Shown: piece after piece, positions 453 through 29,408 of the stretch
How positions within the stretch are numbered: the stretch's first letter is position 1
Layout of the letters: the number at the start of each line of letters is the position of its first letter
DNA from: a virus
Taxonomy: Duplodnaviria; Heunggongvirae; Uroviricota; Caudoviricetes
Direction: 5' to 3' (one strand)
DNA: 35,398 bases
Virus record (IMG/VR): IMGVR_UViG_2541047928_000016
The notes under the pieces: model-generated
What the model was told of the DNA's origin: nothing
The model's input: only the letters and a program-made list of their open reading frames with translations
Databases searched by the model: none
Made by a program: the position numbers and the translations under genes

Positions 453-3010
453 CGTCCACCTCCGGAGAACAGGCCACCATCACGCATCTGTGTCTGAATT
501 TCATCACGGGCACCCTTGCGGGCCATGTCATACACCGCCTTCAGAGCAGCCGGACCTATCTGCCCGTTCGTGCCGTCGTTGTTAATCACCACATGGTTAT
601 TCTGCTCAAACTTCCCGGACGCCTGCGACCGGCTGTCCGCCAGGCTGCCCGGTGTACCGACATAACCACCGGTGGCATAGCCGCGCATCAGCCGGTAGAG
701 ATTCCCCACGCCAATCCGGCTGGTTGCCTCCTTCGTGAAGACAAATTCACCACGGTGAACAATCCCCGCTGGCTCATATTTGCCGCCGGTTCCCGTAAAT
801 CCCCCGGTTGCAAAATGGAGTTTCGCCGCAGCGGCCTGAATGGCTGTACCGCCTGACGCGGATGCGCCGCCACCAACAGCCCCGCCAATAGCGCTGCCGA
901 TACTCCCGACAATCCCCACCATTGCCTGCTTAAGCAGAATTTCTGTCATCATGGACAGCACGGAACGGGTGAAGCTGCGCCAGTTCTGCTCACTGCCGGT
1001 CAGCATCGCCGCCATATTCTGTGCAATTCCATCAAAGGTCTGCGTGGCTGCACTTTTTACCTGCGACATACTGTCCGTGGCGCTCTCTTCCCACTCACTC
1101 CAGCCGGACTTCAGGCCTGCCATCCAGTTCCCGCGAAGCTGGTCTTCAGCCGCCCAGGTCTTTTTCTGCTCTGACATGACGTTATTCAGCGCCAGCGGAT
1201 TATCGCCATACTCCTCCTTCAGGCGCTGTTCCGTGGCTTCCTTCGCTGCCTGCCGGTCAGTCAGCCCCCGGCTTTTCGCATCAATGGCGGCCCGTTTTGC
1301 CCGTTGCTGCTGTGCGAATTTATCCGCCTGCTGCGCCAGCGCGTTCAGGCGCTCCTGATACGTAACCTTGTCGCCAAGTGCAGCCAGCTGGCGTTTGTAC
1401 TCCAGCGTCTCATCTTTATGCGCCAGCAGGGATTTCTCCTGTGCAGACAGCTGGCGACGTTGCGCCGCCTCCTCCAGTACCGCGAACTGACTCTCCGCCT
1501 TCCACAAATCCCGGCGCTGCTGGCTGATTTTCTCATTTGCTCCGGCATGCTTCTCCAGCGTCCGGAGTTCAGCCTGAAGCGTCAGCAGGGCAGCATGAGC
1601 ACTGTCTTCCTGACGATCGCCCGCAGACACCTTCACGCCGGACTGTTTCGGCTTTTTCAGCGTCGCTTCATAATCCTTTTTCGCCGCCGCCATCAGCGTG
1701 TTGTAATCTGCCTGCAGGATTTTCCCGTCTTTCAGTGCCTTGTTCAGTTCTTCCTGACGGGCGGTATATTTCTCCAGCGGCGTCTGCAGCCGTTCGTAAG
1801 CCTTCTGCGCCTCTTCGGTATATTTCAGCCGTGACGCTTCGGTATCGCTCTGCTGCTGCGCATTTTTGTCCTGTTGACTCTGCTGTTCAGCCTTCTTTCG
1901 GGCGGCTTCAAGCGCAAGACGGGCCTTTTCACGATCATCCCAGTAACGCGCCCGCGCTTCATCGTTAACAAAATAATCATCCTTGCGCAGATTCCAGATG
2001 TCGTCTGCTTTCTTAAACGCAGCCTCTGCCTTAATCAGCATCTCCTGCGCGGTATCAGGACGACCAATATCCAGCACCGCATCCCACATGGATTTGAATG
2101 CCCGTGCTGTCCTGTCTGCCCAGGTTTCCAGCGTGCCCATGTTCTCTTTCAGGCGTCGGGTCTGGTCATCAAACCCTTTCGTTGCGGCCTCGTTCGCCGC
2201 CTGCAATGCCCCGGCTTCATCGCCGGAACGCTGCAACTGAGCAACATACGCAATCTGCTCCGCCGTCACGTTATGGAACTGGCGCGCCATCGCCGTCAGC
2301 CCCGACGTCGGGTCAGTGGTCAGCTTCCCGAAGGCTTCAGCGACCTTGTCCACCTCCACGCCGGATGCAGAGGAGAAACGCGCCACACTCTGGCTGATGG
2401 ACGCAATCTGAGCCTCACCGCTTACCCCCGCCTTAACCAGTGCGCTGAGTGACTCGCTGGTCTGGTTAAACGTCAGCCCTGCCGCCTGCCCGGCTCTGGA
2501 CAGGACCAGCATACGATCTGCCGTCAGACCCGACTGATTACCGGAAAGGACCAGCGTTTTGTTGAAATCGGACAGGGTTGAGTTACCCTGATACCAGGCA
2601 TACGCCAGCGCACCGGTCGCCACCGCCAGCGAGGTGGCCCCGACCATCGGCAGGGTGATCGCACCGGCAAGCCCCCGGAACATGGGGATCATCCCGCCGA
2701 AGGAGTCCTTAACCTGACCACCCTGTTGCAGCAGGATCAGCCACGGACTTTGCCCGCCTGCAAGCTGCGTGGCCACGTCGGTGAACTGCGCAGGCAGCAT
2801 ACGCATGGCAGCTTTATACTGCCCGACGGAAATCCCCGCTTTCTGTGCAGCCAGCGCCTGCCGGTTCATCGACTGTTCAACGACTGCCGCTGTTTTTTTC
2901 GCATCAGTTTCCGTACCGGAAAAATGACGCCTGACTCTGGCCATCTGCTCGTCAAATCTGGCCGCATCCAGACTTAAATCAACGACCAGATCGCCTACCG
3001 GTTCAGCCAT
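449..3010 (-). CDS. H: Tail tape measure protein H (853 aa)
   Basis: 853-aa ORF, same length as lambda gpH; coiled-coil/Ala-Gln-rich middle and Gly-rich C-terminus; synteny. Confidence 0.95.
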   Translation of the reverse strand: MAEPVGDLVVDLSLDAARFDEQMARVRRHFSGTETDAKKTAAVVEQSMNRQALAAQKAGISVGQYKAAMRMLPAQFTDVATQLAGGQSPWLILLQQGGQVKDSFGGMIPMFRGLAGAITLPMVGATSLAVATGALAYAWYQGNSTLSDFNKTLVLSGNQSGLTADRMLVLSRAGQAAGLTFNQTSESLSALVKAGVSGEAQIASISQSVARFSSASGVEVDKVAEAFGKLTTDPTSGLTAMARQFHNVTAEQIAYVAQLQRSGDEAGALQAANEAATKGFDDQTRRLKENMGTLETWADRTARAFKSMWDAVLDIGRPDTAQEMLIKAEAAFKKADDIWNLRKDDYFVNDEARARYWDDREKARLALEAARKKAEQQSQQDKNAQQQSDTEASRLKYTEEAQKAYERLQTPLEKYTARQEELNKALKDGKILQADYNTLMAAAKKDYEATLKKPKQSGVKVSAGDRQEDSAHAALLTLQAELRTLEKHAGANEKISQQRRDLWKAESQFAVLEEAAQRRQLSAQEKSLLAHKDETLEYKRQLAALGDKVTYQERLNALAQQADKFAQQQRAKRAAIDAKSRGLTDRQAAKEATEQRLKEEYGDNPLALNNVMSEQKKTWAAEDQLRGNWMAGLKSGWSEWEESATDSMSQVKSAATQTFDGIAQNMAAMLTGSEQNWRSFTRSVLSMMTEILLKQAMVGIVGSIGSAIGGAVGGGASASGGTAIQAAAAKLHFATGGFTGTGGKYEPAGIVHRGEFVFTKEATSRIGVGNLYRLMRGYATGGYVGTPGSLADSRSQASGKFEQNNHVVINNDGTNGQIGPAALKAVYDMARKGARDEIQTQMRDGGLFSGGGR

Positions 3011-9135: not shown

Positions 9136-12816
<3,681 letters not shown>

Positions 12817-12842
<26 letters not shown>

Positions 12843-13362
12843 TCAGCAACCCCGGTATCAGTTCATCCAGCGCGGCTGCTTTGTTCATGGCTTTGATGAT
12901 ATCCCGTTTCAGGAAATCAATATGCCGGTTATCCAGCTCAGGAAAACGTCGCTGCACCGACAGAGGAATACCGTCGAGAATACTGGATATTTCCCTTGCT
13001 ATACGCGACAGCACGAAAGTACAGAATGCGGTTTCCACCACTTCAGCCGATTCTTTGGCATTTTTCAGTTCCTGCGCCGTCGCCTGAGCACGAGTCAGGC
13101 GATGGCGCTCAAATTCAAGTGTTCCGGGGTGAAGATCTGCCTCGCTGGCCAGCCGCAGTTCTTCAACCTCCCGGCGCAGCTTTTCGCTCTCAATTTCAGC
13201 ATCCCTTTCGGCATACCATTTTATGACGGCGGCAGAGTCATAAAGCACCTCATTACCCTTGCCACCGCCTCGCAGAACGGGCATTCCCTGCTCCTGCCAG
13301 TTCTGAATGGTACGGATACTCGCACCGAAAATATCAGCCAGCTGCTTTTTGTTGACTTCCAT
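12817..13362 (-). CDS. Nu1: Terminase small subunit Nu1 (181 aa)
   Basis: 181-aa ORF MEVNKKQLADIFGASIRTIQNWQEQGMPVLRGGGKGNEVLYDSAAVIKWYAERDAEIE...; winged-HTH N-terminus; overlaps A start. Confidence 0.95.
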
Positions 13363-13575
13363 TGTTCATTCCCCGGACAAAAACAGAGAAAGGAAACGAC
13401 AGAGGCCAAAAAGCCCGTTTTCAGCACCTGTCGTTTCCTTTCTTTTCAGGGGGTGTTTTAAATAAAAACATTAAGTTACGGCGAAGAAGAACGGAAACGC
13501 CTTAAACCGGAAAATTTTCATAAATAGCGAAAACCCGCGAGGTCGCCGCCCCGTAACCTGTCGGATCACCGGAAA
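13363..13575 (-). other. cos region: cosB between Nu1 start and cosN; 12-nt cohesive-end sequence (cosN) at about 13540-13551; cosQ-side flank beyond
   Basis: Plus strand aaacccgcgaggtcgccgcccc is the reverse complement of the lambda left-end GGGCGGCGACCTCGCGGGTTT; flanking sequence ...cgtaacctgtcggatcaccggaaagg matches my recall of the lambda right end. Confidence 0.8.
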
Positions 13576-13750
13576 GGACCCGTAAAGTGATAATGATTAT
13601 CATCTACATATCACAACGTGCGTGGAGGCCATCAAACCACGTCAAATAATCAATTATGACGCAGGTATCGTATTAATTGATCTGCATCAACTTAACGTAA
13701 AAACAACTTCAGACAATACAAATCAGCGACACTGAATACGGGGCAACCTC

Positions 13751-13984
13751 ATGTCAACGAAGAACAGAACCCGCAGAACAACAACCCGCAACATCCGCTT
13801 TCCTAACCAAATGATTGAACAAATTAACATCGCTCTTGAGCAAAAAGGGTCCGGGAATTTCTCAGCCTGGGTCATTGAAGCCTGCCGCCGGAGACTGTGC
13901 TCAGAAAAAAGAGTTTCTTCTGAAGCAAACAAAGAAAAGAGTGACATTACTGAATTGCTCAGAAAACAGGTCAGACCAGATTGA
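13751..13984 (+). CDS. Small basic protein with predicted ribbon-helix-helix (Arc/MetJ-like) fold (77 aa); possibly YnfO-like
   Basis: ORF MSTKNRTRRTTTRNIRFPNQMIEQINIALEQKGSGNFSAWVIEACRRRL...; Arg/Thr-rich N-tail then beta-strand/helix pattern typical of RHH; weak RBS. Confidence 0.55.
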   Translation: MSTKNRTRRTTTRNIRFPNQMIEQINIALEQKGSGNFSAWVIEACRRRLCSEKRVSSEANKEKSDITELLRKQVRPD

Positions 13985-14041
13985 AGCAATTTAGATAATC
14001 GTGCAGACTACGCCCCCTCATATCACATGGAAGGTTTATCT

Positions 14042-14452
14042 ATGGATCAGGTAGTCATTTTTAAACAAATATTTGATAAAGTTCGAAACGATTTAAACTA
14101 TCAATGGTTTTATTCTGAGCTAAAACGTCACAATGTCTCACATTACATTTACTATTTAGCCACAGAGAATGTTCATATTGTATTAAAAAATGATAATACA
14201 GTGTTATTAAAGGGCCTAAAAAACATTGTGTCTGTCAAATTTTCAAAGGATAGGCATCTTATAGAAACGACCTCTAATAAGCTGAAATCCAGAGAGATCA
14301 CATTTCAGGAATACAGAAGAAACCTTGCTAAAGCAGGAGTTTTTCGGTGGGTTACAAATATCCACGAACAAAAAAGATATTACTATACCTTTGATAATTC
14401 ATTACTATTTACTGAAAGCATCCAGAAAACTACACAGATCTTACCACTCTAA
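14042..14452 (+). CDS. ydfO: YdfO-like protein (DUF1398 family), 136 aa
   Basis: Start placed at second ATG (14042) with AAGG 7 nt upstream; translation [52 protein letters not shown]... as I recall Qin YdfO. Confidence 0.7.
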
Positions 14453-14603
14453 ACCATAACGTCCGGCTTCTCTCACTCCTGAGCCGGACTGCATTGGTTT
14501 AATAAAAACCATCAACAATTGTGATTTAGATATTCGGAACCATTCAAATATAACAAAACCCCGTAAAAACGAGGTTTATGGATAAATTTTATTATTGAAT
14601 ACA

Positions 14604-14777
14604 TCAGATTAAATTAATCTTGACATCATAGCTTTCAAGACCCGTCATTTTTTCCCGTGCGGTAAACTGAATACTGGTAACTTCTTTCCCGGTCTTTTTC
14701 TTAAGTTCAATAATTTTTTTTGTTATATATTCAGAAATATCTGCTTCTGCTTTTGTTTTTAAGTTTTCAATATTCAT
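14604..14777 (-). CDS. gnsB: GnsA/GnsB-family small protein (57 aa); below the ORF-track size cutoff
   Basis: Manual translation of minus strand: MNIENLKTKAEADISEYITKKIIELKKKTGKEVTSIQFTAREKMTGLESYDVKINLI, stop TGA at 14604-14606; tandem ATG-ATG start. Confidence 0.75.
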   Translation of the reverse strand: MNIENLKTKAEADISEYITKKIIELKKKTGKEVTSIQFTAREKMTGLESYDVKINLI

Positions 14778-14948
14778 CATTTCCTCTTTTAGTCTGTTAT
14801 GACTTTCCAGTTACACAGTAAGTCGATTATATGGTGCAAACGTGTAAAAGATAAGATGAAACATCGCAATAATCAACATACGATAGTCTAAATTTTACAT
14901 AAACAGACAAAGAGAATTTTCCTGAATTATCAATGCAATAGCATCAAA

Positions 14949-15179
14949 TCAACTCAAGAGCCTTATTGCTGCTTCCAGAATTTCTTCTGAAGTAACATGT
15001 CGATCCGCGGCTACATAAATGACTTTATGATCTCCGGTCAGAGATGGAAACCCTGCGGCCATTACAGTAAGGTGTGTTTTTTCGCCATTTGGATATTCAC
15101 GCATGATGGTGTTAACTCCAGTCATCGCTGGCACTACCACTGCTGGTTCAGAGTTAAAAAAAACTATGATTTTTTTCAT
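14949..15179 (-). CDS. Small hypothetical protein (76 aa from internal ATG; MKKIIVFFNSEPAVVVPAMTGVNTIMREYPNGEKTHLTVMAAG...)
   Basis: ORF-track 90-aa frame; start moved to ATG at 15177-15179; no strong RBS; located between gnsB and cspI as ynfN is in Qin, but identity not verified. Confidence 0.45.
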   Translation of the reverse strand: MKKIIVFFNSEPAVVVPAMTGVNTIMREYPNGEKTHLTVMAAGFPSLTGDHKVIYVAADRHVTSEEILEAAIRLLS

Positions 15180-15450
15180 GATGTTACCGTAGTATGTGAG
15201 TATCCATCGAATAGACACCAAGCAAAAAAGCTCCCGAAGGAGCCTTCATTTTCACTTTTTTAAATCCAACGACAGACGGCTGGCATTTAAGTATTGTGAA
15301 ATATTATCAAATGTAATCATCATTGATTTACAAAAGATACATTTTGCCCCGAAAGGATTCATGTCAGAAACATCAAAAGATGATGTTCTATACTGGGAAC
15401 CATGACAACACGGGCATCTAAAGTGAATATGGTTTGTAATATTGTCTACC

Positions 15451-15663
15451 TCAAAGCGCCACTACATGAACAGCGGCAGGACCTTTAGGTCCGTTCTCAA
15501 TACCAAATTCAACTTCCTGATTCTCAGTTAATGTTTTGAAATCGTTGCTCTGAATTGCTGAGAAATGGACAAACACATCTTTGCTGCCATCTTTCGGCGT
15601 GATGAAACCAAAACCTTTTTCAGGGTTAAACCATTTCACTAAACCAGTCATTTTGTTAGACAT
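15451..15663 (-). CDS. cspI: Cold shock protein, CspA family (70 aa), CspI-like
   Basis: [70 protein letters not shown]; RNP1 motif KGFGFI and RNP2 VFVHF. Confidence 0.9.
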
Positions 15664-16024
15664 AATTATTACCTTTTGAAGAAATTAGCCCTTGGGCAGA
15701 ATGGTCCGAAAAAAATATCAGAGAGAAAAACCAACAAGGAAATCTCAAGAGGTACAAATAATAAAATTATAACAATGACTGCTTCAGATAAATTTGTAAC
15801 AAACCAGAACACCATTAACGCATGATTAACCACCCATAGCAAGGATTACTTTTGTAAAGAAAAACACAGCAATGAAAGAATAGCTTTATTTATTAATAAA
15901 ACGTGTCATTCTGATTAAGACCTTTTATCTTACCCTTAAGATTTCAGGAATTTTGGCTCATGGAAGAGTCCTTTTTATTTAAATTTTACATTCCGCGATG
16001 TAAATGTTCCGATTTAATATTACC

Positions 16025-17048
<1,024 letters not shown>

Positions 17049-17052
<4 letters not shown>

Positions 17053-17360
17053 AGATATTTATGATGAGGACGCTCGTGCTTATTGGCAGGATTTTCAATC
17101 TTAAAGGAGTACTGATGCTGCAGATAAGACTCAACTTTTTCTGACAATTTTTCTGCTACTTCCAGGAAGACTTGCCGGACGCTCCTTCTGGCTGCTGCCT
17201 CATAAAACTCCAGCGCAGCTCCTTCAACACGGTCCATGGCGACATCCAGGTCAAAAATTTCACCGTCAAAGCGTTCTTTGTCCTGTAAGGCTACAGTTAC
17301 CGTAACTTTATTCTCAAAATTACGGACTCCTTTCACAACCAGTTCATAGTCTTGAGTCAT
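17049..17360 (-). CDS. ydfR: YdfR-like protein (DUF1327-type), 103 aa, between holin and endolysin
   Basis: 103-aa ORF MTQDYELVVKGVRNFENKVTVTVALQDKERFDGEIFDLDVAMDRVEGAALEFYEAAARRSVRQ...; position equivalent to ydfR in Qin. Confidence 0.65.
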
Positions 17361-18056: not shown

Positions 18057-18333
18057 TTGTGGTGCTTTTTGTGGGAGTCATCCACTTACGCACTTTGTTT
18101 TGCCATGCCAGCAGTTAGCTTCTGCTGTAAAACTATTCATGCAGCAAACCTGCACTTCACCACAATGGTTAGCATACTTTTCCTGATTAAGATTTTGCCA
18201 AATATGCTAGCCATTGTTTCATGTATTGGACCTCCTTACTTTTTATTAAAGAGATCCAATATTCACTACTCTGTCCGTATCTCTACTCAGGCATCAGCCT
18301 TCTTCGTTATCGTATACAGACGAGCGATGAATT

Positions 18334-18549
18334 TTAATCAGTAATGATGACATTTGCTGCTGCAGGACCTTTAGCACCACTCTCTATAGAGAAGGTAACC
18401 TTTTGACCTTCAAATAAGGTTCGATAATTATCATTCTGAATCGCAGAAAAATGCACAAACACATCTTTACTACCATCAACAGGAGAAATAAAGCCGAAAC
18501 CTTTATCAGCGTTAAACCATTTTACTAAACCAGTCATTTTATTTGACAT
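18334..18549 (-). CDS. cspB: Cold shock protein, CspA family (71 aa), CspB-like
   Basis: [71 protein letters not shown]; long upstream untranslated region (18550-18700) typical of cold-shock mRNAs. Confidence 0.9.
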
Positions 18550-18849
18550 TCTACATTCCTTAACTTGAGCCTTTCGGCATAAATGGTTTGCATAACAGAA
18601 ACGACTTCGTACTTAATTGGAGAGACTCAAAGAAGGAATAAGTGAATAACACCTGAAATGAGAACTGCTTTAGTAAACTACTTCGTATATCGTCTGTTCT
18701 TCAAACCGACGCAATCATTAACGCATAGTTGAACATATGAAGCAATGTTTATTTTAGACATCCAGCCATCTTCAACCCCATCAAAAAACTATAGCTTTCT
18801 TCAGGAACGTGTGTATAGTGCGCCAAGTTATCAGTATTAAGGAATTTTT

Positions 18850-29350: not shown

Positions 29351-29408
29351 TTTCTGGTGACGTTTGGCGGTATCAGTTTTACTCCGTGACTGCTCTGCCG
29401 CCCTTTTT
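29351..29408 (+). ncRNA. dicF: DicF small RNA (ftsZ/manX-targeting antisense sRNA) with terminator hairpin and U-tract
   Basis: tttctggtgacgtttggcggtatcagttttactccgtgactgctctgccgcccttttt matches my recall of K-12 DicF; 170 nt upstream of dicB. Confidence 0.8.

Follow-up and report, generated by a model that had tools for sequence, protein, structure and literature searches.

The closest described relative of the locus considered here is found in the Qin prophage of Escherichia coli K-12 MG1655 (NC_000913.3 1636756-1638667), where the genes follow one another as ynfO-ydfO-gnsB-ynfN-ynfR-ynfQ-cspI, and where the packaging region is represented only by nohA, followed by tail-fibre genes. The host chromosome carries a second series of this kind, cspG-ymcF-ymcE-gnsA, in which a csp gene, an ATT-start gene for the CxxC protein YmcF, a 76-aa gene and a gene for a Gns protein occur in matching order and overlap. 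At the right end of phage lambda, the matching position is occupied by a ynfO-like gene, ybcW, ybcV and bor, with no csp-gns cassette. Like the gene for the small basic protein YnfO, arc and mnt of P22 lie within the late region of their lambdoid phage.

The DNA analysed (hereafter the window) is a stretch of 35,398 nucleotides from a virus of the Caudoviricetes (IMG/VR record IMGVR_UViG_2541047928_000016), and the features discussed are collected in Table 1. Gene order and strands are identical to those of K-12 Qin, and only 4 of the 2473 positions of the cos-to-Rz interval differ; the proteins YnfO, GnsB, YnfR, YnfQ and CspI (five of seven) are identical to those of K-12, YdfO differs by the single change L136R, and ynfN is intact here and frameshifted there. 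Unlike K-12 Qin, the prophage in the window has full Nu1, A and cos. Read in reverse complement, the cosN sequence is the left end of lambda; positions 13500-13750 show 100% identity with lambda, and the heptamer AGGACCC corresponds to cosQ of the lambda literature. Of 5426 complete E. coli genomes, 1054 contain at least 80% of positions 13400-16100, where these same seven genes are annotated; identity over this part reaches 99.8% for many E. coli chromosomes and 99.3% for the phage record PhiR42_1. The locus is already known and is an ordinary one, annotated in E. coli K-12 and in thousands of further genomes.

Table 1. Positions of the features discussed, numbered from the first letter of the window.
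Feature	Position	Strand	Remarks
A	10917-12842	-	
Nu1	12817-13362	-	
cosN cohesive-end sequence AGGTCGCCGCCC	13540..13551		Direct sequence reading; packaging boundary of the interval
cosQ-equivalent heptamer AGGACCC	13575..13581		Sequence; maps to lambda 48473-48479 by identity alignment
ynfO	13751..13984	+	77 aa, pI 10.5, DUF3950 / YlcI-YnfO family; antisense to late operon
PdhR-box-like palindrome AACAGGTCAGACCAGAT	13965..13981	+	3' end of ynfO; sole exact match in the window
ydfO	14042..14452	+	136 aa, DUF1398; soluble; antisense to late genes
Stable hairpin	14461..14489	+	Directly past ydfO stop; no canonical T-tract
Intrinsic-terminator-like hairpin with T-rich tail	14546..14577	-	Downstream of gnsB; terminator scan
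gnsB	14604..14777	-	57 aa, GnsA/GnsB family
ynfN	14949..15179	-	Intact 76-aa form
ynfR	15184..15249	-	21 aa; RefSeq and K-12 annotation
Intrinsic terminator GGCTCC-TTCG-GGAGC then T6	15224..15246	-	Directly past ynfQ stop; terminator scan
ynfQ	15252..15440	-	62 aa, YmcF-like CxxC...CxxC small protein; ATT start
cspI	15451..15663	-	70 aa, CspA-family cold-shock protein
cspI 5' leader	15664..15808	-	145 nt, part of cspA-type RNA thermoregulator
Rz-type spanin	16025-16522		
Lysozyme	16519-17052		

A preliminary description of this DNA had presented positions 13751-15663 as an AT-rich, moron-like cluster of five genes lying between cos and the lysis cassette. The position and the composition were both borne out, with a G+C content of 0.364 against 0.570 on the head/terminase side and 0.464 in the rest of the window, a deviation in base composition of the kind looked for in morons; the whole interval from cosN to the spanin gene, with its intact small genes, has 36% G+C. 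All five open reading frames named are present where they had been placed, but the count has to be raised to seven, as RefSeq has it for K-12 and for near-identical genomes, since ynfQ, with its ATT start, and ynfR had been left out. Nor do the genes form a single cluster, for at least two modules can be told apart that move independently. Lambda lacks the csp-gns part, and in 12 of 80 close IMG/VR relatives ynfO-ydfO or ydfO occurs without the csp-gns genes, with ydfO leading directly to Rz; Stx phages, in turn, are found without ydfO. Presence and absence among similar phages, the other mark of a moron, is thus seen in ydfO and the csp-gns cassette, for which the accessory label stands, and not in ynfO. 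It is highly probable that the interval is an accessory region of a Qin-type lambdoid E. coli prophage whose separable parts, a cold-acclimation cassette, ydfO and ynfO, are set at the lysis-packaging junction.

The product of ynfO belongs to the DUF3950 / YlcI-YnfO family, with scores above the curated cut-offs for both PF13132 (75.6 bits, cut-off 25) and NF041551 (36.6 bits, cut-off 30). Codons 1-49 show a pN/pS of 0.07-0.20, which is strong purifying selection, and the N-terminus is conserved among homologues while the C-terminal tail is variable. The same division is seen in lambda, where the DNA is identical from cos to ynfO codon 45 and the tail of the homologue (complement 48109-48303) differs; J02459 and NC_001416 carry no feature over this gene. 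YnfO is present in all lambdoid relatives examined in detail, and 155 phage records, lambda among them, hold a homologue antisense at the lysis-packaging junction; in YYZ-2008, and likewise in further contigs, ynfO is the sole antisense gene between Rz and HNH, and in Stx-type phages it stands without a co-directional neighbour. Because its location at the lysis-packaging junction is conserved across differing packaging modules and its sequence is under selection, ynfO is unlike cargo, and the earlier statement that none of these genes is needed for phage growth lacks support for ynfO, which is probably a phage regulator.

The same gene had also been described as encoding a ribbon-helix-helix (RHH) protein. 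The NIRFP motif of YnfO falls in RHH register with NLRWP of P22 Arc and NFRMP of Mnt, and is followed by a helix, a Gly turn and a helix; in the AF2 model, which is a monomer model, an extended N-terminus leads into helix 19-32, which turns at G33 into a second helix starting at residue 34, with a pLDDT of 71-85 over residues 11-50 and a mean of 69 for the whole model. By hhalign, NIRFP was aligned onto Arc NLRWP and G33 onto Arc G30, at an E of 0.05 and low probability. The best Foldseek matches in the PDB were ParD antitoxins and a TCP domain, all with E of at least 1.2 and hence non-significant, these non-significant matches being consistently RHH proteins; a search against solved structures with the single sequence and with a 25-sequence profile gave no meaningful PDB sequence match. 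YnfO differs from Arc and Mnt in its long variable C-terminal helix or tail, and its sequence and fold scores against them are non-significant. The RHH call is consistent with motif, model and top fold matches, none of them being statistically significant, and the N-terminal 49 residues resemble, as modelled, an RHH of the Arc/Mnt type; YnfO may accordingly be read as a candidate DNA-binding protein. A weak tblastn match of YnfO in a Pasteurella phage was discarded because it lies on the strand opposite an annotated 'transcriptional repressor'.

It can be proposed, as a tentative and rather doubtful extension, that YnfO is an Arc/Mnt-like repressor belonging to the core of lambdoid phages, which, made from a promoter of its own in the lysogen, might control transcription into or out of the packaging region or that of the neighbouring accessory genes. 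Its variable tail might suit different partners. Genomic SELEX has placed a PdhR site at 'ynfO > ydfO < gnsB' (PMC7660256), and a PdhR-box-like palindrome is found in the window at the end of ynfO (Table 1).

It seems unlikely that YnfO has a different role, in a two-gene unit with ydfO, as an antitoxin to the DUF1398 protein or a regulator dedicated to it. The two genes run in the same direction with 57 bp between them and are neighbours in all close loci that are not truncated, and the conserved, DNA-binding-like N-terminus with a variable tail resembles that of RHH antitoxins, ParD proteins being, as noted, the top non-significant fold matches. However, a YnfO homologue is seen in 155 phage records and a YdfO homologue in just 43, YnfO is solitary in Stx-type phages, lambda has the opposite-strand ybcW between its ynfO-like and ydfO-like genes, and none of 20 chromosomal DUF1398 genes (Kluyvera, Klebsiella, Salmonella and others) has a YnfO homologue within 3 kb. 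These loci were searched with the narrower alignment as query, the alignment with distant members being too divergent. The RHH protein thus has, as had been remarked, no evident partner, and ynfO is better read as the stand-alone, positionally conserved gene of a putative small basic Arc/Mnt-like DNA-binding protein.

YdfO itself is a full-length DUF1398 protein (PF07166, 157.5 bits, profile positions 1-119/119) and matches PDB 2HH8, 'hypothetical protein ydfO', at an E of 6.8e-90; an alternative ATG at 14027 would give 141 aa. On reading of its sequence, no signal peptide or membrane segment was seen. For DUF1398, the label 'head protein' used in PHROG 413 and that of 'putative envelope protein' used in lambda are unsupported, 2HH8 being a solved NMR structure. 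The DUF1398 gene of lambda (lambdap78/ybcV-like) is 79% identical to YdfO, and ynfO and ydfO both lie antisense to the late operon, as lambda bor does; ydfO may be regarded as a lambda-type accessory gene. Directly past its stop, the stable hairpin has a folding energy of -21.9 kcal/mol (z = -5.95), with 0 of 200 shuffles equally stable. It has been reported that ydfO transcripts are inducible in K-12.

The other genes, cspI-ynfQ-(terminator)-ynfR-ynfN-gnsB, are co-directional with the late genes. CspI has a full-length cold-shock domain (PF00313, 108.4 bits, profile positions 1-65/66) with the motifs KGFGFI and VFVHF (RNP1, RNP2), and its gene is reportedly cold-induced. The leader of cspI is of the thermoregulator kind, for the Rfam model RF01766 matches 15424-15808 on the minus strand with 114.2 bits (gathering score 78; E 1e-28) from model position 1, beginning 145 nt upstream of the cspI ATG; at a permissive Rfam threshold, the only other matches were chance microRNA-like ones on the cosB inverted repeat. 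The ATT start of ynfQ lies 10 nt past the cspI stop, and its Shine-Dalgarno sequence GAGG overlaps the cspI stop codon; the translation contains CPCC...CIFC and matches PF23641 over profile positions 1-62/62 (111.8 bits), as expected of a YmcF-like small zinc ribbon. The terminator past ynfQ (-14.9 kcal/mol, z = -2.43) keeps its stem and T-tract, with a different loop, in related loci L116, L117 and L120. The start codon of ynfR is just 5' of this hairpin, which is encoded by the first ynfR codons, and the ynfR ATG is missing in the related cassette of L116-L120. In a lineage of 76% identity, the order cold-shock domain, YmcF-like, YnfN, GnsAB is found beside another packaging module (HNH, Terminase_4, TerL).

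YnfN matches phrog_3425 over positions 1-76/76, and homologues retain the 76-aa form down to 52% identity; the frameshift of the K-12 allele comes from the loss of one nucleotide, at window position 15156. Its AF2 model (pLDDT 89.1, pTM 0.78) predicts five strands and a C-terminal helix, and an informative structural neighbour of this model was not found. GnsB has a full-length domain (PF08178, 120.2 bits, profile positions 1-54/54), and the terminator-like hairpin downstream of its gene has -14.7 kcal/mol (z = -2.37). Compared with the host cspG locus, residue identity is 55/70 (79%) for CspI and CspG, 41/62 (66%) for YnfQ and YmcF, and 37/57 (65%) for GnsB and GnsA, while the third gene, ynfN in the prophage and ymcE in the host, is unrelated; furthermore, where the host genes overlap, the prophage has an intrinsic terminator and ynfR after ynfQ, and a gap of 171 bp before gnsB.

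This comparison bears on whether GnsB is a type II toxin with the upstream ynfN as its antitoxin, as ymcE is said to be for gnsA, which we regard as very unlikely. The Pfam title of PF08178 is 'GnsA/GnsB toxin of bacterial toxin-antitoxin system', RefSeq lists gnsB as 'addiction module toxin', and ynfN has the position and the length (76 aa) of ymcE. An adjacent, usually overlapping gene for a YmcE-related antitoxin is nevertheless not seen, since similarity between YnfN and YmcE is not detectable (best local score 21) and the 171 bp separates ynfN from gnsB; the most divergent YnfN homologue (locus L121) has csp and YmcF-like genes upstream and no GnsAB gene called nearby, PADLOC gave no match for GnsB or YnfN, and plasmid-borne gnsB rescues growth and does not block it. 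At 25 °C, a relA fadR mutant could be rescued with gnsB on a plasmid, and overexpression restores low-temperature growth of mutants poor in unsaturated fatty acids. As described in work citing Sugai 2001, overexpressed K-12 gnsB raises the unsaturated fatty-acid content. The earlier view of these genes as host-physiology modifiers is thus supported for GnsB and CspI, through published work on identical K-12 proteins.

A cold-acclimation cassette mirroring the host cspG-ymcF-ymcE-gnsA locus would then work as follows. By the known behaviour of cspA-type leaders, that of cspI would stabilise and open the mRNA in the cold; ynfQ would be translated from its ATT just past cspI, ahead of the intrinsic terminator, and those transcripts that pass the terminator, in the cold or through Q-modified late transcription, would carry ynfR, ynfN and probably gnsB. 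CspI would act as an RNA chaperone, and GnsB would increase membrane unsaturated fatty acids. Since the internal terminator is conserved, ynfR, ynfN and probably gnsB would depend on read-through. Cold-shock induction has been reported for YnfR-SPA (PMC6001520), and cspI, ynfQ and ynfN are induced together; that transcripts pass the ynfQ terminator in the cold may be deduced from the induction of YnfR. In addition, for the prophage Tritos of strain LF82, which is 96% identical, lysogen transcriptomes place cspI and ynfN 93-fold and 27-fold above the prophage background; these two have been termed morons, and ydfO, gnsB and ynfO are not among the morons so named. At its threshold, the promoter scan (2 sites, against 8.7 in shuffles) found no consensus sigma-70 promoter upstream of ynfO or gnsB, so we infer the transcription units; terminator-like hairpins follow ynfQ, gnsB and ydfO, and the start of the cspI leader is set by Rfam.

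Accessory regions of prophages, such as the lysis-packaging junction, often hold defence genes, and CspI has sub-threshold matches to the PADLOC model CSD_V (E 3e-15) and, at 50 bits against a cut-off of 82, to the model of the retron Se72 effector. That the cluster serves anti-phage defence, as an island whose cold-shock-domain protein acts like a retron- or CSD-type effector, is nonetheless highly improbable: CspI shares 79% of its residues with the housekeeping protein CspG and does not differ from K-12 CspI, cspI has a full cspA thermoregulator leader, Rfam gave no match to a retron non-coding RNA, no reverse transcriptase is among the genes annotated here, and apart from the generic CSD model on CspI no protein of the interval was matched by PADLOC. 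Lastly, the idea that the small open reading frames are pieces left from larger genes broken up as the prophage decayed, which could appeal to the AT-rich interval, to short frames on both strands and to the defective prophage around the K-12 copy, is refuted by profile searches in which each gene matches its own family end to end and none is a fragment, ynfN being intact here and the sequenced phage PhiR42_1 having the same interval.

It can be seen above that the cold-acclimation cassette, ydfO and ynfO most probably represent separable parts of a prophage accessory region. The functions of CspI and GnsB are already published, and the locus itself counts for little as a discovery; what changes is the description of the locus as seven genes in separable modules, with the 76-aa YnfN as the intact form and the K-12 allele as a frameshifted one. 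YnfO is strongly constrained, positionally conserved and, as modelled, probably DNA-binding, and is missing even from the lambda reference records. These leads could guide the study of a second cold-acclimation unit that the prophage may supply to its host.

The cos-to-spanin interval is the already known accessory region of Qin. In E. coli K-12 MG1655, the Qin sequence of this interval differs from the window at 4 of 2473 positions, and its YnfO, GnsB, YnfR, YnfQ and CspI match the window proteins exactly; YdfO departs from its counterpart by the final residue. Of 5426 complete E. coli genomes, 1054 contain 80% or more of window 13400-16100; phage record PhiR42_1 is 99.3% identical over the same stretch, and Tritos, the prophage of strain LF82, is 96% identical over the interval. 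In this lambda-like prophage the minus strand encodes the late genes, and cos and the lysis cassette, which also includes the holin gene, lie on either side of the interval, as the preliminary description had placed them; the interval's AT-richness is borne out by a G+C of 0.36, compared with 0.57 in the flank holding the head genes and 0.46 in the opposite flank. The five open reading frames listed there were all found where it had put them, and, because profile searches showed that all five cover their family profiles end to end, the view that they are remnants of larger genes is not supported. The count of five was too low, since RefSeq lists seven genes here, both in K-12 and in E. coli chromosomes that are 99.8% identical, the overlooked ones being ynfQ and ynfR. 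Overall, the locus is real, its location right and the interpretation largely right, but already known. Elsewhere in the window, 17.5-19.5 kb forms a second AT-rich island; a second cspA-type thermoregulator (158.8 bits) occurs upstream of the holin gene, at a position syntenic with cspB in K-12; and a DicF small RNA match (76.7 bits) is likewise consistent with a Qin-type prophage.

Features of the interval, the rest of the window and comparison loci
Feature	Coordinates	Strand	Remark
Terminase gene A	10917-12842	minus	packaging side
Terminase gene Nu1	12817-13362	minus	packaging side
Inverted repeat, 26 nt, 85% complementary	13384-13446		between Nu1 and cosN
Cohesive-end sequence AGGTCGCCGCCC	13540-13551		beyond Nu1
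Perfect 13-bp palindrome GATAATGATTATC	13589-13601		between cosQ-equivalent heptamer and ynfO
ynfR	15184-15249	minus	21 aa
Intrinsic terminator, GGCTCC-TTCG-GGAGC + six T	15246 to 15224	minus	directly 3' of ynfQ stop codon
ynfQ	15252-15440	minus	ATT start; RefSeq/K-12 annotation
Spanin gene	16025-16522		lysis side
Lysozyme gene	16519-17052		lysis side
YdfR-like gene	17049-17360		lysis side
Second cspA-type thermoregulator	18318-18710	minus	
DicF match	29352-29403	plus	
Host ymcF, apparent ATT start, locus L005	3185-3373		
Uncalled YmcF-like ORF, apparent ATT start, locus L121 (most divergent YnfN)	about 2755-2950		
Conserved 74-aa gene, chromosomal loci L086-L093, L099, L103, L105	about 2530-2770	minus	MLEGYFDLD...

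The genes had been described as one cluster; they proved to be modular, with parts separable among relatives. The full order Nu1, ynfO, ydfO, gnsB, ynfN, ynfQ, cspI, Rz predominates among 80 close IMG/VR loci, and in 12 of the 80 ydfO adjoins lambda-type Rz directly. Lambda has, at the same place, a YnfO homologue, ybcW, a DUF1398 gene and bor, while the csp-gns genes are absent. In the lineage whose YnfN is 76% identical, the genes CSD, YmcF-like, YnfN and GnsAB keep their order, lack ynfO and ydfO, and are flanked by a lysis cassette and a packaging module of HNH, Terminase_4 and TerL. The most divergent YnfN (L121, 60% identical) still comes after a CSD gene and a YmcF-like ORF that had not been called, and no Gns gene was called at this locus.

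This last locus bears on whether GnsB and YnfN form a toxin-antitoxin pair, which is not supported. The host cspG-ymcF-ymcE-gnsA locus resembles the cassette, its csp, ymcF-like and gns pairs being 79%, 66% and 65% identical, but YnfN is unrelated to YmcE; moreover, a gnsB plasmid rescues a mutant poor in unsaturated fatty acids at 25 °C. Overexpressed GnsB is reported to increase unsaturated fatty acids. One of the four differences in K-12 MG1655 is a 1-nt deletion in ynfN at window position 15156 (compare locus L003, 7955-8185), which makes the 51-aa YnfN of K-12 a truncated allele; the protein is intact in the window, at 76 aa, a form that is kept in other Enterobacteriaceae down to 52% identity.

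A complete thermoregulator of the cspA type accompanies cspI (Rfam RF01766, 114 bits; gathering score 78), its match starting 145 nt upstream of the ATG; this is one of the grounds on which a defence island is not supported. The Rfam search gave no match to the 3' terminator of the model after cspI. The next gene, ynfQ, follows after 10 nt, with GAGG overlapping the cspI stop codon, and was missed by an ATG/GTG/TTG scan because it starts with ATT. An ATT a few bases past the csp stop codon is also apparent in host ymcF and the YmcF-like ORF of L121, and from these sequences it looks like a conserved non-canonical start missed by gene callers. The first codons of ynfR, whose start lies just upstream of the terminator hairpin, form the hairpin stem. 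In the 76%-identical cassette (L116, L117, L120), the stem and T-tract are kept and the loop differs, while the ynfR ATG is not conserved; the selected element may be the terminator and not the small ORF. The basal unit would be cspI-ynfQ, and ynfR, ynfN and perhaps gnsB would be transcribed when polymerase passes the terminator, either at low temperature or as part of Q-modified late transcription. CspA-family proteins are known antiterminators. It has been reported that YnfR is strongly cold-shock induced in tagging experiments (PMC6001520), that cspI, ynfQ and ynfN increase together under AZT treatment (PMC11228462), and that in a Tritos lysogen cspI and ynfN are 93-fold and 27-fold over prophage background (PMC9928086).

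YdfO belongs to DUF1398, a small family (199 representative clusters among 1.84 billion, E <= 0.001); it matches 2HH8, an NMR structure whose depositors listed it as a hypothetical protein. In K-12, ionic liquid strongly induces ydfO transcripts, and a PdhR SELEX site has been reported just upstream of ydfO (PMC7660256), the sequence of which is found in the window at 13965-13981. A conserved 74-aa gene is divergently paired with the chromosomal DUF1398 gene of Kluyvera and its relatives.

The claim that YnfO lacks a partner held. The evidence does not support an obligate pairing of YnfO with YdfO: YnfO homologues occur in 155 phage records and YdfO homologues in 43; in Stx-type phages YnfO stands alone in the gap from Rz to the HNH-terminase genes and is invariably antisense to the late genes; no YnfO homologue lies within 3 kb of 20 chromosomal DUF1398 genes (Kluyvera, Klebsiella, Salmonella and others); and in lambda an opposite-strand gene, ybcW, separates the two. 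Hundreds of ~3.5-kb ENA contigs carry lambda-like YnfO and YdfO of variable length (protein hits P0014-P0120, P0195-P0300), as do records labelled Staphylococcus, Bacillus, spider and 'Campylobacter phage' (MW057783); these appear to be artefacts of public data, namely lambda control DNA that was carried over and variants due to sequencing errors.

Purifying selection on codons 1-49 of ynfO is strong (pN/pS 0.07-0.20 at pS 0.4-0.65), the C-terminal tail being variable; with its conserved position, ynfO looks like a conserved phage gene and not the cargo that had been proposed. The DNA is identical to lambda from cos to codon 45 and diverges abruptly at codon 50, which on alignment has the appearance of a mosaic joint within ynfO. 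The nearby 13-bp palindrome, found once in the window at 0 mismatches, could be a candidate protein-binding site; the inverted repeat, in a cosN-to-Nu1 stretch near-identical to lambda, attracted microRNA-like Rfam matches judged to be chance. The lambda homologue has 64 aa (L004 2852-3046, lambda complement 48109-48303), and J02459 and NC_001416 have no feature over it. YnfO is basic (pI 10.5), and its structure model has an extended N-terminus followed by two helices joined by a Gly turn, the first spanning 19-32. Assignment to the RHH proteins is reasonable as a prediction, but neither the top Foldseek matches (ParD antitoxins and a TCP domain) nor the profile comparison, which places NIRFP on Arc NLRWP and Gly33 on Arc Gly30, is significant. 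The sole mildly novel lead is YnfO as a conserved, predicted Arc-like gene located where the lysis and packaging genes of lambdoid phages meet.
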